Shown here: one piece after another, positions 4,988 to 8,717 of the stretch
Layout: every line of letters begins with the position of its first letter
Position numbering within the stretch: the stretch's first letter is position 1
Source: a virus
Taxonomy: Duplodnaviria; Heunggongvirae; Uroviricota; Caudoviricetes
DNA length: 17,360 nt
Strand: one strand, 5' to 3'
Virus record (IMG/VR): IMGVR_UViG_2645728010_000005
Position numbers and translations under genes: made by a program
Notes under the pieces: generated by a model
The model's input: the letters and a program-made list of their open reading frames with translations, nothing else
The model's database searches: none
What the model was told of the DNA's origin: nothing

Positions 4988-5481
4988 TGCTGACCCCACA
5001 AACAGATTTCACGCTCAATCTCACGACGAGTCATGAGACCTTTCCATTGCTTACCGCCAGCATATGTCCAGCGACGTAGCTGATCACATGCGCCTTTGAT
5101 ATCGCCCTGGTTTATTTTGCGAAGAAGCGTCGATGTTCTGAAATTGCCAGCGCCCACGTTGTAAACGAACGAGTAAAGAGCGCCGCGCGTTGTTTCCGGT
5201 ATATCAACTTTTATGTACGGGTTAATTTGTCTGGCGACCGTGGCAAGGTCTTTATTCAGGAGGGCTTTGCATTCTGCTTTGGTATACGTTTTACCGAGCA
5301 TGATGTCTTTTCCTGTATGCCCGTGACATACAGTCCATACACCAACAATATCTTTGTATGGTATGTAGCTGACACCTTCCAGACCATCGTTACCACTTGG
5401 GCCAGTGATTAACACTGATGCTATAGCAATTGCTCCGCCACCAATAGCAGCAGCAACGGCTTTTCGTAATGATGGAGGCAT
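4984..5481 (-). CDS. rrrD: SAR endolysin (phage 21 R-type lysozyme with N-terminal signal-anchor-release domain)
   Basis: 165 aa; the N-terminus [27 protein letters not shown] is a weakly hydrophobic Gly/Ala-rich SAR segment, followed by a lysozyme-like body. Matches DLP12 RrrD / phage 21 R as I recall them. Confidence 0.9.
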
Positions 5482-5696
5482 TATTCACCTCTCGCAGCCT
5501 TGCGCTTATCTTCTTTAATCTTGAAATAAAGGTTTGTCAGGTACGTCAGCAGGCCAAATACCAGGCTACCCAGCACACCTATTGCTGCCCACTGTGAGGG
5601 CGTGACTTTATCGAGCAGCTGTAAAAACCAGTAACCGGCACTACCTGCTGAGGTGCCATAGGCGACACCCGTTGTTAACTTATCCATGGATTTCAT
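5481..5696 (-). CDS. essD: Class II holin / pinholin (phage 21 S-type) with dual-start motif M-K-S-M
   Basis: ATG 5696 with SD GAGGTG; 71 aa [71 protein letters not shown] with two TM segments. The track ORF start at 5741 is a TTG extension. Confidence 0.85.
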
Positions 5697-5911
5697 AACC
5701 CCACCTCGCAGACAAAGCGGGTGTAAATTGAGGGAATACAACGTATCGCAAAAAAGCAGAAACGTAACAGACTCGGAGTCAGTGAATAACTCAGGTATTG
5801 AGTTATCAGCTAATATCGAGACTCAAAAAATGGAAAAACCAGCTCGACGGCGGGTTTAAGCTGTGTGACGAAGTAACCACTCTTAACAGCATAACCAATT
5901 TTTTACGTACG

Positions 5912-6048
5912 TAAACCACTGAATGATATTTATGAGAATGCTACCGAGTGTTCAAAACACCACCACAAATATATAAGAAAACCTCAACAAATAACCAATA
6001 AATAATTTCCGGCGTTATTTTTAGTTGATTTAAATTAAACCACTGAAT
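5912..6048. repeat. 13-bp direct repeat TAAACCACTGAAT at 5912..5924 and 6036..6048 in the AT-rich porin upstream region
   Basis: Read directly from the sequence; both copies lie in the non-coding region 5742..6284. Confidence 0.6.
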
Positions 6049-6918
6049 TATAGAACCCCCATAAATAACAGCCATTAATATAAATTAGCTAATAGGTTTA
6101 TTTTTGTTCAAATAAGAGCCATAAATAGGTTTCGATAGAAAAAGTTCAGATAAAAATAGAGATCTACTTCACAAATTAAATGAGAAACTAAAACTTACAT
6201 CTTGAAATAATCACATTGATTAGATGAATATTTATCGCGCAGTGACATCATTTTTTAATAATAGTTCAAAAAAAAGGGCTCACGATGAAAAAATTAACAG
6301 TGGCAATTTCTGCTGTAGCTGCATCAGTACTGATGGCGATGTCTGCTCAGGCAGCTGAAATTTATAATAAAGACAGTAACAAGCTGGATCTGTACGGGAA
6401 AGTTAATGCCAAGCACTACTTTTCCTCTAACGATGCAGATGATGGTGATACTACTTATGCCCGTCTTGGCTTCAAAGGTGAAACCCAAATCAACGATCAA
6501 CTGACTGGTTTCGGTCAGTGGGAATATGAATTCAAAGGCAACCGCGCTGAATCTCAAGGTTCCTCCAAAGACAAAACCCGTCTTGCATTTGCAGGCCTGA
6601 AATTCGGTGACTACGGCTCAATCGATTACGGCCGTAACTACGGTGTAGCATACGACATCGGTGCGTGGACTGACGTTCTGCCAGAATTCGGTGGCGATAC
6701 CTGGACCCAAACAGATGTGTTCATGACTGGTCGCACCACTGGTGTTGCAACCTATCGTAACAACGACTTCTTTGGTCTGGTCGATGGCCTGAACTTTGCT
6801 GCTCAGTATCAGGGTAAAAATGACCGCACTGACGTAACTGAAGCCAATGGTGATGGTTTCGGTGGTGATGCTGCCAACTTACTGATTTAGTGTATGATGG
6901 TGTTTTTGAGGTGCTCCA

Positions 6919-7194
6919 GTGGCTTCTGTTTCTATCAGCTGTCCCTCCTGTTCAGCTACTGACGGGGTGGTGCGTAACGGCAAAAGCACCGCCGGACATC
7001 AGCGCTATCTCTGCTCTCACTGCCGTAAAACATGGCAACTGCAGTTCACTTACACCGCTTCTCAACCCGGTACGCACCAGAAAATCATTGATATGGCCAT
7101 GAATGGCGTTGGATGCCGGGCAACTGCCCGCATTATGGGCGTTGGCCTCAACACGATTTTACGTCACTTAAAAAACTCAGGCCGCAGTCGGTAA
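6919..7194 (+). CDS. insA: IS1 InsA (transposition inhibitor / N-terminal part of the transposase)
   Basis: 91 aa [43 protein letters not shown]... with a zinc-finger CxxC...CxxC; canonical InsA. Confidence 0.9.
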
Positions 7195-7616
7195 CCTCGC
7201 GCATACAGCCGGGCAGTGACGTCATCGTCTGCGCGGAAATGGACGAACAGTGGGGCTATGTCGGGGCTAAATCGCGCCAGCGCTGGCTGTTTTACGCGTA
7301 TGACAGGCTCCGGAAGACGGTTGTTGCGCACGTATTCGGTGAACGCACTATGGCGACGCTGGGGCGTCTTATGAGCCTGCTGTCACCCTTTGACGTGGTG
7401 ATATGGATGACGGATGGCTGGCCGCTGTATGAATCCCGCCTGAAGGGAAAGCTGCACGTAATCAGCAAGCGATATACGCAGCGAATTGAGCGGCATAACC
7501 TGAATCTGAGGCAGCACCTGGCACGGCTGGGACGGAAGTCGCTGTCGTTCTCAAAATCGGTGGAGCTGCATGACAAAGTCATCGGGCATTATCTGAACAT
7601 AAAACACTATCAATAA
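7113..7616 (+). CDS. insB: IS1 InsB reading frame (expressed as the InsAB' transposase by -1 frameshift)
   Basis: 167 aa ...[28 protein letters not shown]...; canonical InsB, overlapping insA in the -1 frame. Confidence 0.85.
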
Positions 7617-8153
7617 GTTGGAGTCATTACCGGTTTCGGTTTCTCCACTACTTATGAGTATGAAGGATTCGGCGTGGGTGCAACCTATGCTAAATCAGAT
7701 CGCACTGACGGTCAGGTCGCCTATGGTAAGAGCAAATTCAATGCCTCCGGCAAAAATGCGGAAGTATGGGCTGCAGGCCTGAAATATGATGCGAACAATA
7801 TCTATCTGGCTACCACATATTCTGAAACTCAGAATATGACCGTTTTTGGTAATAACCATATTGCAAACAAAGCACAAAACTTTGAAGCAGTAGCACAATA
7901 TCAGTTTGACTTCGGTCTGCGACCATCTGTTGCTTACCTTCAGTCAAAAGGTAAAGACCTTGGTGTTCATGGTGACCGAGACTTAGTCAAGTATGTCGAT
8001 GTCGGTGCTACTTACTACTTTAATAAAAACATGTCCACTTTTGTTGATTACAAAATCAACTTAATTGACGATAGTAAGTTTACCAAAACAGCTGGTATTG
8101 ATACCGACGACATCGTCGCTGTAGGTCTGGTGTATCAGTTCTAATCTGATTAC

Positions 8154-8194
8154 GAAAAAGATATGTTGCGGGAGGCTTTGCCTCCCCAACATAT
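8154..8194 (-). terminator. Intrinsic terminator on the minus strand (candidate tR' of the late leader); its hairpin also sits 17 bp after the porin stop on the plus strand
   Basis: Stem ATATGTTG-(C)-GGGAGGC / GCCTCCC-CAACATAT (8161..8194, loop ttt), followed on the minus strand by CTTTTT (complement of 8155..8159). Confidence 0.5.
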
Positions 8195-8282
8195 AAGTGG
8201 CTCCCTCAAGCCACTTCCTTTAGAAGCACAACCTTGCTTCTAACTATATAAACCTTCTGTTATATATTACCCTTTATTTTTG

Positions 8283-8316
8283 GGGGCGTCTCAACGCCCC
8301 ATTTTTAATAATTTTT
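8283..8316 (+). terminator. Plus-strand intrinsic terminator
   Basis: GGGGCGT-ctca-ACGCCCC hairpin (8283..8300) followed by ATTTTTAATAATTTTT. Confidence 0.4.
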
Positions 8317-8333
8317 AGTAAACAATTGGCATA

Positions 8334-8717
8334 TTAATTAGAGTTATTAACAACGATATCCATCTCTAACCGGATATCTAATGCCATTAACATCCCTTCA
8401 ATTATGCCCTCAGCCTTCTGTAACCTTTTCCCGATATAACCATCAGAGCAGCAATGCTTACCTGCCAGTGACATGAATGTCATACCGACTACATAATAAT
8501 CTACTAATAAATCATGCAAATCGCTGTTGTTCTTTTTCAGACGGGCCATGCACCCGCAAATGATCATCGCGTCATCGTCACAACATTGTGGGCGAGATTT
8601 TACTTTTGAAGGAATTAATCCCTTAAAACCGGCGGCAATGGACGACCAGGTCACATCTTCATGATTATTAGCCGCCCACGCTCCCCAACGCTCAAGAACC
8701 ATCTGAATATCACGCAT
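8334..8717 (-). CDS. quuD: Late-gene antiterminator Q (short, DLP12 QuuD-like)
   Basis: ATG 8717; 127 aa [24 protein letters not shown]... with a Cys-rich zinc-binding region ([16 protein letters not shown]). The track ORF has a 5-codon upstream extension. Confidence 0.85.

Follow-up and report, generated by a model that had tools for sequence, protein, structure and literature searches.

The spacer between the holin gene and the porin pseudogene in the window (the whole 17,360-nucleotide stretch of IMG/VR record IMGVR_UViG_2645728010_000005) is, with a probability that we put at roughly 0.85, the control unit of the nmpC/lc porin, which has the Q/late-promoter region on one side and the lysis cassette on the other, is activated by CRP and repressed by OmpR, and serves a porin that is the IS1-broken allele of E. 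coli B. As part of the same explanation, the 13-bp and 9-bp direct repeats in the spacer are very probably coincidences of a minority allele, with no regulatory role. Both the literature and regulatory databases already cover the nmpC/lc promoter with its CRP sites and its repression by OmpR. Our analysis adds mostly negative results: the repeats mark a rare allele and need no further attention, the spacer is composite, and the 'CRP site 1' annotated in phage PA-2 is doubtful.

The window corresponds at 100% identity to DLP12, a cryptic prophage, in the form carried by the E. coli B/BL21 lineage (strain C matches it as well), and the matching BL21 and strain C sequences carry annotated essD, rrrD and the porin. 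Gene positions were taken from the RefSeq annotation of BL21(DE3), with the window position equal to the position in the BL21(DE3) locus (L002) minus 5601:

5481..5696, minus strand: essD, the DLP12 holin gene, with its start ATG at 5696 (BL21(DE3) RefSeq annotation)
6285..6863, plus strand: 5' fragment of nmpC, a porin pseudogene (BL21 annotation and ORF list)
6864..7631, plus strand: IS1 within nmpC, in the orientation of the porin (BL21 annotation; the porin fragments are 768 bp apart)
6919-7616, plus strand: IS1 transposase CDS, between the two porin fragments (BL21 annotation)
7632..8144, plus strand: 3' fragment of nmpC (BL21 annotation)
8334-8717, minus strand: quuD (BL21 annotation)

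According to both the BL21 and the MG1655 annotations, the spacer is flanked by the holin of the lysis cassette on one side and by a divergently transcribed OmpC-family porin on the other, downstream of Q. K-12 nmpC (PnmpC, DLP12/qsr') and PA-2 lc represent the same locus, with the same flanking genes and the same CRP site. The upstream region of PA-2 lc (J02580) is 94% identical to the spacer, a three-way alignment of the upstream sequences of K-12 (MG1655) nmpC, PA-2 and the window gave a mean column identity of ~97%, and K-12 is identical to the window across 6189-6270. This homology bears out the view of the spacer as a porin control region put forward in the preliminary description, which had been made from the sequence alone. 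Compared with K-12 and PA-2, the E. coli B allele has a 16-bp indel close to the holin and, at 6030-6062, a divergent patch, which happens to create the second copy of the 13-mer, and its porin is disrupted by IS1, whereas that of K-12 is disrupted by IS5.

The holin start had been placed at 5741, at the TTG that opens the maximal ORF; because EssD starts at the annotated ATG 5696, the spacer measures 588 bp instead of 540 bp. It is non-coding, as had been proposed, since we found no convincing ORF in it. Small ORFs of 23-57 aa in the spacer were considered but taken to be spurious: conservation as a gene was seen for none of them, and the label 'hypothetical protein' in some phage records looks like automatic annotation. 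A search of the whole window against Rfam at gathering thresholds gave no match, so the IpeX region downstream of nmpC goes unrecognised by Rfam. The gene order quuD (minus), nmpC (plus), essD (minus) means that late transcripts dependent on Q run through the region antisense to the porin, in agreement with the preliminary description.

In the spacer, a leader of the phage late operon (5697-5893, 42-47% GC) and the AT-rich control region of the porin (5894-6284, 28% GC) form a mosaic. The description of the spacer as very AT-rich is accordingly correct for 5894-6284 (GC 0.28) and incorrect for 5697-5833 (0.42) and 5834-5893 (0.47). The left-hand part comprises two features:

5697..5833, minus strand: leader of the lysis cassette, on the strand of the late transcript and outside the porin unit (GC 0.42; homology to VIT_AJPSC)
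5834..5893, minus strand: conserved module of a hairpin and a U-run, terminator-like, at the left edge of the porin insert (common to other phages)

In the Shigella phage VIT_AJPSC, which has no porin, a homologue of the 5697..5833 segment immediately precedes a different holin, and the 5834..5893 module is common to phiP27 (between L22 and L23), VIT_AJPSC, SfII and Stx phages, where it adjoins Q. In the K-12, phiP27 and VIT_AJPSC versions, the predicted fold of the module is a G+C stem with a U-run after it. The stem is weakened in the E. coli B allele by C>A at 5842, a change common to PA-2; with it the stem is gone from the minimum-energy fold, and a simple terminator scan reported none. 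To judge from the predicted folds, 5834-5893 may function as a terminator on the minus strand. The left-hand ~200 bp (5697-5893) would constitute a unit of the opposite strand, namely a holin leader with a terminator-like hairpin common to lambdoid phages, and only the right-hand ~390 bp (5894-6284, 28% GC) would form the porin unit. Q-modified late transcription is predicted to pass antisense through nmpC and then to read through the left-hand hairpin module. The late regions of lambdoid phages carry accessory units ('morons'), for example bor and lom of lambda and stx of Stx phages. The porin unit resembles them as an AT-rich, independently promoted host-interaction gene set with terminator-like flanks in the late operon, but unlike them it is transcribed opposite to that operon, with the consequence that late transcription is antisense to it.

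A sigma-70 consensus scan of the spacer revealed no strong promoter, which is consistent with a weak, activator-dependent promoter, though it is uninformative. The following elements were assigned from start-site data and from alignment with the promoters of chromosomal ompD genes:

6202..6207, plus strand: probable -35 element TTGAAA (from its spacing to the start; aligns with TTGAA of ompD)
6226..6232, plus strand: probable -10 element (GAATAT / AATATT), weak (aligns with the ompD -10 TAAAAA)
6239, plus strand: probable transcription start G, giving a 46-nt leader (5' RACE, ChIP-exo distance and ompD alignment)

The start of K-12 nmpC was mapped by 5' RACE to a G (PMC11677980). In a table of ChIP-exo data for OmpR the start is 43 bp from the peak centre (PMC5438342), and the position 43 bp downstream of the centre at window position 6196 is exactly G6239; the distance is listed as +43 and those of the ompF upstream sites as negative, a sign that is ambiguous, and if it is meaningful the start would lie near 6153 (an A), with the OmpR box downstream of it. 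The mapped start of Salmonella ompD, which has a 69-nt leader (PMC3333887), aligns to window positions ~6234-6239. The ompD genes of Salmonella, Citrobacter, Enterobacter and Lelliottia encode orthologous porins with 73-78% protein identity, and their promoter core can be aligned with that of nmpC over GAAACTTA..TTGAA, a -10-like element and an upstream TCACA half-site for CRP. In the alignment with 17 chromosomal ompD-type promoters, GAAACTTA-TTATTGAA is kept along with the TCACA half-site and the -10-like TAAAAA, and the TTGAA aligned with 6202-6207 is invariant. The ompD promoters differ in reading TTATTA where nmpC reads TTACAT and in having the CRP half-site one helical turn further upstream; the ompD leader is 69 nt against 46 nt in nmpC, and ompD is chromosomal whereas nmpC is prophage-borne. 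The core at 6140-6260 varies little, with a minor-allele fraction of 0.002-0.045 per 20-bp bin. The conserved core (~6140-6284) may thus be viewed as a weak sigma-70 promoter with the -35 element at 6202-6207, the -10 element at ~6226-6232 and the start at G6239, although we infer these exact positions from spacing and alignment.

nmpC is a known target of CRP, recovered also by Genomic SELEX (PMC3105977), and PMC11677980 states that Crp activates PnmpC at two operators and that OmpR, IHF and MprA repress it. CRP, the main published activator, had been missed in the preliminary description. The two sites of the PA-2 record map as follows:

5861..5881, plus strand: 'CRP site 1' of the PA-2 record (J02580 misc_binding 1067-1087, alignment A1)
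6156..6176, minus strand: CRP site 2 of the PA-2 record (J02580 misc_binding complement 1363-1383, mapped by alignment)

The core of site 2, AGAGA-TCTACT-TCACA at 6158-6173, has 8/10 matches and is nearly invariant among 115 loci. Its centre is 73.5 bp upstream of G6239, which corresponds to a class I position (near 61.5, 72.5, 82.5 or 92.5) as far as the assigned start is right. cAMP-CRP bound at 6158-6173, ~73 bp upstream of the start, would activate the porin promoter. The core of site 1 (TGTGA-N6-AACCA) has 7/10 matches and lies ~368 bp upstream of the assigned start, inside the phage-wide terminator module, so that its role at the porin promoter appears doubtful.

Repression of nmpC by OmpR in K-12 has been published. 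With reference to Coll et al. 1994, PMC5438342 counts nmpC among the OmpR targets characterised earlier and classes it as repressed; its transcript rose 2.4-fold in an ompR knockout, from 19 to 46.5 FPKM (PMC5438342). The OmpR ChIP-exo peak lies at NC_000913.2 576106-576166 (PMC5438342, Supplementary Table 1), the genome version being that given in the methods of PMC5438342. The published OmpR and CRP experiments were all made in K-12 and are carried over to the E. coli B allele by sequence identity. For the transfer we used an offset between NC_000913.2 and.3 that we take to be 777, from the version-2 coordinates of ompF; with this offset the ompF peak overlaps boxes F1-F3. The features concerned are:

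6166..6226, strand not assigned: K-12 OmpR ChIP-exo peak, transferred (centre 6196; alignment A2)
6194..6213, plus strand: OmpR-box-like 20-mer CTTACATCTTGAAATAATCA, candidate OmpR operator (likeness to ompC C1, peak centre)

The preliminary description had pointed out the 21-mer TTACATCTTGAAATAATCACA, which is indeed present at 6195-6215, as similar to the OmpR-binding boxes of ompC and ompF. The 20-mer at 6194-6213 is identical to ompC box C1 at 14/20 positions, including 13 of the first 14, and the pattern TTACATnTTGAAA, whose 12 specified bases are common to the box and C1, occurs exactly once in the window. In a scan with a matrix built from seven OmpR sites the box scored 9.1 bits, as did C1 when left out of the matrix, and ranked 14 among 34,682 positions, with 13 window positions scoring higher. 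This matrix discriminates little, since true OmpR boxes left out of it scored from -15 to 13.6 bits, and the score of the box was not above AT-rich background (P=0.58 against the top scores of shuffled AT-rich sequence from the region), nor did it clearly exceed that of shuffles of the ChIP-exo footprint (P=0.14). The motif scan that had been suggested as a check therefore does not set the box apart, and the assignment is based on the transferred ChIP-exo coordinates, at a resolution of 61 bp. These place the box inside the peak, with the peak centre at 6196 falling on TTACAT (6195-6200), and the best match in the peak to KWWGTTACAT, the motif of the ChIP-exo study (PMC5438342), is at 6191-6200 (8/10). 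The box core AAAACTTACATCTTGAAATA is invariant in 127/127 loci anchored outside the box, which is weak evidence of constraint over 20 bp because the surveyed alleles are only ~5% diverged. E. albertii (L008) has CCTGGTTCTTGAAATA and so is without the TTACAT half-site, which speaks against the operator assignment. We consider the 20-mer at 6194-6213 the best candidate within the 61-bp peak for the operator of OmpR repression. OmpR bound at or beside CTTACATCTTGAAATA (6194-6209) would repress the porin promoter, most likely by competing with RNA polymerase, as the site overlaps the -35 element.

The preliminary description had envisaged host envelope-stress control of the EnvZ/OmpR type. Control by OmpR is confirmed by the published K-12 data, whereas activation of the ompC/ompF type is contradicted by the rise of the transcript in the knockout. 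The regulator is the same in vivo as for the ompC (C1-C3) and ompF (F1-F4) arrays, and the nmpC box has TTACATnTTGAAA like C1. The arrangement is different: ompC and ompF have three phased 20-mers from ~100 to 40 bp upstream of the start, whereas nmpC has a single box on the probable -35 element and no tandem array upstream. The outcome in nmpC is repression, and its second half-site is without the conserved AC (GAAATA instead of GAAACA). That the box is nonetheless an activation site through which EnvZ/OmpR switches the porin on at high osmolarity, like ompC, could be argued from its 12/13 identity to the C1 core and from the binding of OmpR at the locus in K-12. We regard this as highly improbable, because the site is classed as repressing (PMC5438342), because in 6150-6245 only one plus-strand 20-mer exceeds 3 bits, the one overlapping TTGAAA, its neighbours all scoring <3 bits, and because the box overlaps the probable -35 element instead of ending just upstream of it. 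A less remote alternative, which we still consider rather unlikely, is that the box is conserved as the -35 element with its upstream flank, that its likeness to OmpR boxes is incidental, and that OmpR binds another AT-rich sequence in the peak, such as 6180-6199. An inverted C3-like 20-mer is located there on the minus strand, with 15/20 identity to box C3, and the matrix score of the box does not exceed background. What nmpC has in common with chromosomal ompD promoters is, moreover, AAACTTA..TTGAA; as ompD reads TTATTA at the TTACAT of nmpC, the AC critical for OmpR lies outside the ancient core. However, the peak centre and the best match to the study motif both fall on TTACAT, and since both candidate sites contain 6194-6199, the two readings differ little in practice.

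The repeats, which had been presented as possible control elements, are:

5912..5924, plus strand: 13-mer copy 1, TAAACCACTGAAT (direct reading and repeat finder)
6036..6048, plus strand: 13-mer copy 2, TAAACCACTGAAT, allele-specific (direct reading and repeat finder)
6059..6067, plus strand: 9-mer copy 1, CCATAAATA (K-12 and PA-2 have CTTATAAATA)
6119..6127, plus strand: 9-mer copy 2, CCATAAATA (K-12 and PA-2 have CCATGAATA)

The 13-mer TAAACCACTGAAT occurs twice where it had been reported, and the repeat extends to 16/17 matches; the 9-mer CCATAAATA also occurs twice, at coordinates one base lower than those given. Repeats of 9-mers are expected by chance and were common in shuffles, with a mean of 2.3 per shuffle; 8 were observed, 5 of them sub-words of the 13-mer. 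Two copies of the 13-mer, with or without the 9-mers, might serve as repeated sites for MprA/EmrR, IHF or H-NS nucleation that loop or silence the promoter. The case for such sites is that only 1.25% of 2,000 dinucleotide-preserving shuffles of 5697-6284 contained a perfect direct repeat of 13 bp or more (P ~0.0125), a nominal value with no correction for the 17 kb that had been scanned. We give this possibility hardly any weight. Copy 1 is in a well-conserved stretch, with G or A at 5920 as its two main alleles, but at the position of copy 2 both K-12 and PA-2, in which the regulation was studied, have TGAACCTTCAAAT. Copy 2 falls where the region varies most (the AT-rich part peaks in the 20-bp bin 6040-6059, with a minor-allele fraction up to 0.15), its site has at least seven variants among IMG/VR loci, both 13-mer copies are present in only 2/115 viral loci, and the allele of the window over 6010-6085 (at >=99% identity) was found in 62/2,418 E. 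coli records. Neither repeat thus has a counterpart in the experimentally studied homologous promoters of K-12 nmpC and PA-2 lc, the very finding that the preliminary description had named as speaking against the repeats. IHF-consensus matches in the spacer (5893; 6090 on the minus strand) are apart from the repeats and not enriched; the window has 35 matches against 23 expected, and none is assignable to the published IHF site. The 13-mers were also considered as MprA boxes and rejected, since the mprA (emrR) promoter has only CACTG in common with them. A motif of the mprA promoter, GTCACTG, matches the window at 6241-6247 on the minus strand.

Two further readings are, taken jointly, speculative. 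The TTACAT half-site may be a phage-lineage change relative to TTATTA of chromosomal ompD, one that would have brought the porin under the control of host OmpR. The other concerns IS1, which begins 625 nt downstream of the assigned start, in the orientation of the porin and with no plus-strand terminator predicted in between, so that in E. coli B transcription from the nmpC promoter, which is activated by CRP, repressed by OmpR and induced at 37 C, may extend into the IS1 transposase genes. Such a coupling of promoter and insertion sequence has been shown in K-12 nmpC for its IS5 copy. If it also holds here, IS1 activity in BL21/REL606-type strains would be coupled to carbon source, osmolarity or pH, and temperature, and an active, signal-responsive promoter facing IS1 may be of practical relevance in laboratory strains of E. 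coli B.

The interval 5400-6700 matched E. coli B derivatives (BL21, REL606, C41/C43 and others) and strain C by megablast with 100% identity over its full length, under features annotated as rrrD, essD and a porin; in the annotated BL21(DE3) stretch, the entire window is DLP12 cryptic prophage. Subtracting 5601 from BL21(DE3) locus positions gave the following layout from the annotation:
5481-5696, minus strand: essD (holin), in the order rzpD, rrrD, essD
6285-6863 and 7632-8144, plus strand: porin pseudogene, in two pieces
6864-7631, plus strand: IS1 between the pieces, in the same orientation as the porin
8334-8717, minus strand: quuD, then nin-region genes, on to intD
The K-12 counterpart of the porin gene is nmpC, interrupted by IS5, not IS1, and the region put forward as porin control region in the preliminary description is therefore the essD-nmpC spacer; as such it is real and was correctly located. 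The TTG at 5741, first taken as the holin start, opens a maximal ORF; in the annotation, EssD starts with the ATG at 5696, which makes the spacer 588 bp long. None of the ORFs in the spacer looks real.

The 13-mer TAAACCACTGAAT occurs at 5912-5924 and 6036-6048, as originally noticed, and the repeat extends to 16/17 matches; of 2,000 dinucleotide-preserving shuffles of the spacer, 1.25% contained an exact direct repeat of 13 bp or more. The 9-mer CCATAAATA is also repeated, although at 6059-6067 and 6119-6127, one base below the positions first given. Repeated 9-mers in the spacer are ordinary in comparison with the shuffles (eight observed, five of them sub-words of the 13-mer; shuffle mean 2.3). 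As a porin-promoter feature, the repeats did not hold up when homologues were compared. At the copy-2 position of the 13-mer, phage PA-2 (J02580, the type lc sequence) and K-12 both read TGAACCTTCAAAT, and their two 9-mer positions carry CTTATAAATA and CCATGAATA. Two copies of the 13-mer were found in 2 of the 115 IMG/VR loci with full flanks, among which the copy-2 position has at least seven variants. The most variable 20-bp bin of the AT-rich part is 6040-6059 (minor-allele fraction 0.15); the bins from 6200 to 6259 have values of 0.002-0.003. The segment 6010-6085 is present in 2,418 records of complete E. coli genomes; identity to the window reaches 99% or more in only 62 of them, and 1,862 lie in the 80-90% identity band, together with K-12 laboratory strains. 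The second 13-mer copy is therefore fortuitous, the product of a variable patch as it stands in a minority allele. A short hypervariable patch (6036-6062) lies between conserved TTAAAC and GAATTATAGA; its variants include CACT, TGCC, AGAC, TGCT, CACC and CTTC, and this variation may be neutral drift.

The 21-mer TTACATCTTGAAATAATCACA, likened earlier to the OmpR boxes of ompC and ompF, is located at 6195-6215. An OmpR matrix was built from the seven classic boxes, F1-F4 (ompF) and C1-C3 (ompC), all of which were confirmed upstream of the two genes in MG1655. The corresponding feature in the window is:
6194-6213: OmpR-box-like 20-mer CTTACATCTTGAAATAATCA, identical to C1 at 14/20 positions, 13 of them among the first 14
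TTACATnTTGAAA has a single exact occurrence in the window. The 20-mer scored 9.1 bits (rank 14 of 34,682 positions). Compared with shuffles of the AT-rich region, this score lacks significance (P=0.58); compared with shuffles of the ChIP-exo footprint, it is only weakly suggestive (P=0.14). The matrix discriminates poorly: true boxes score from -15 to 13.6 bits when left out (C1, 9.1). The scan thus failed to lift the site above AT-rich background, and since sequence alone cannot settle the OmpR question, the literature must decide. When loci were anchored on the CRP site instead of the box, AAAACTTACATCTTGAAATA was invariant in 127/127, and ATCACA, the 3' end of the 21-mer, was variable.

The offset between NC_000913 versions.2 and.3 was assumed to be 777, from the version-2 ompF coordinates; with it, the published ompF peak overlaps boxes F1-F3, which is the only check of this value. 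In Seo et al. (2017, PMC5438342), nmpC is the only gene listed as already characterised for repression by OmpR, with reference to Coll et al. 1994; the study reported an OmpR ChIP-exo peak at 576106-576166 (reads mapped to NC_000913.2) and an increase of nmpC from 19.0 to 46.5 FPKM in the ompR knockout. Transferred with the 777 offset through a three-way alignment of the window, K-12 nmpC and PA-2, the peak covers 6166-6226, and the OmpR-like box sits at its centre (6196). The best match within the peak to KWWGTTACAT, the motif from PMC5438342, is at 6191-6200 (8/10). Zhang et al. (2024, PMC11677980) describe two operators through which Crp activates PnmpC, name OmpR, IHF and MprA as its repressors, add control by small RNA, and place the 5' RACE start at a G. 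nmpC is also among the known CRP targets recovered by Genomic SELEX (PMC3105977), and the literature reports a 16.5-fold higher transcript level at 37 °C than at 23 °C and repression by PhoP. OmpR control of nmpC was thus already known and the finding contains nothing new; the suggested control stands as published repression with a peak at the box, but not in its likeness to ompC/ompF, as there is a single site, overlapping the probable -35.

The ChIP-exo table gives 43 bp from peak centre to start site (PMC5438342), and counting 43 bp downstream from the centre leads exactly to G6239, consistent with the RACE G. The sign in that table is +43, while upstream ompF sites carry negative values (PMC5438342); the sign is thus ambiguous, and the alternative start near 6153 that it would imply is an A with no plausible -10. 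Chromosomal ompD-type genes from Salmonella, Citrobacter, Enterobacter, Lelliottia and others (73-78% protein identity) have upstream regions that align with the window, with nearly invariant GAAACTTA-TTATTGAA, a -10-like TAAAAA and TCACA upstream. With a leader of 69 nt (PMC3333887), the Salmonella ompD start is a G aligned to window 6234-6239, and this homology provides independent support for the placement. Together, the 43-bp distance, the RACE G and the ompD alignment led to this arrangement, listed with the CRP site mapped from the PA-2 record:
6156-6176: second CRP site of the PA-2 record, core AGAGA-N6-TCACA, 8/10 matches
6202-6207, plus strand: putative -35, TTGAAA
around 6226-6232, plus strand: putative weak -10
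6239, plus strand: putative transcription start, a G, with a 46-nt leader

Relative to this start, the CRP core would be centred 73.5 bp upstream, a class I position, and the OmpR-like box would cover positions 45 to 26 upstream, an overlap with the -35 that fits repression by occlusion. ompC and ompF, in contrast, have three phased boxes, all located upstream of the -35. At the position of nmpC TTACAT, ompD promoters have TTATTA and E. albertii CCTGGT, so the OmpR-type half-site lies outside the ancient promoter core. The CRP half-site TCACA is one helical turn further upstream in ompD promoters than in nmpC. Chromosomal ompD promoters of several genera (loci L007 and L009-L023) have a nearly invariant TTTGAAACTTATTATTGAA(AC) in common, which lies between about 100 and 30 bp ahead of the aligned start and holds TGAAAC motifs that look like an OmpR-box second half-site.

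Predictions of MprA/EmrR boxes upstream of nmpC prompted a comparison of the 13-mer with the mprA promoter; only CACTG is common to both, and the 13-mer was rejected as an MprA box. GTCACTG of the mprA (emrR) promoter matches 6241-6247 on the minus strand, just downstream of the putative start; it may be the MprA operator that has been published for PnmpC.

The spacer had been called very AT-rich, which is true of 5894-6284 (GC 0.28) but not of 5697-5833 (0.42) or 5834-5893 (0.47), the whole window having 0.456. Its left third belongs to the opposite strand's unit: in homology searches, the porin-less Shigella phage VIT_AJPSC carried a counterpart of 5702-5888 immediately upstream of a different holin, and 5834-5893 recurred in SfII, between L22 and L23 of phiP27 and beside Q in many Stx phages. 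Two features fall here:
5834-5893, minus strand: conserved hairpin and U-run module, from homology and folding
5861-5881: first "CRP site" of the PA-2 record, 7/10 matches, about 368 bp upstream of the start
On the minus strand, the module comprises a small hairpin (GUGG...CCAC), then a G+C stem, then a U-run. This stem folds in the K-12, phiP27 and VIT_AJPSC versions; in the window allele a C>A change at 5842, also present in PA-2, removes it from the minimum-energy fold. We interpret the module as a putative read-through terminator in the rightward/late operon; the porin insert would have its left border here, at about 5893-5903. The first PA-2 "CRP site" falls within this phage-wide module, and its role as a porin-specific site is doubtful. 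Just upstream of the holin start, a 16-bp indel distinguishes the window from K-12 (GTATCGCAAAAAAGCA, missing from MG1655), and bin 5740-5759 has the highest allele variation in the whole spacer (0.33).

The gene order in the BL21(DE3) annotation supports the proposal that the late transcript runs antisense to the porin. The nmpC-quuD spacer (8145-8333), for which Rfam returned no family, contains four hairpins, and two terminator-like features lie in it:
about 8160-8187, minus strand: GGGAGGC/GCCTCCC hairpin and T-run, which looks like a late-promoter-proximal terminator
8283-8300, plus strand: last hairpin and T-run, probably the nmpC/IpeX terminator
IS1 begins 625 nt downstream of the putative nmpC start, and no plus-strand terminator was predicted between the two. 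The transposase of the IS5 copy in K-12 nmpC is expressed from PnmpC (PMC11677980); by analogy, the promoter could drive IS1 in E. coli B strains.
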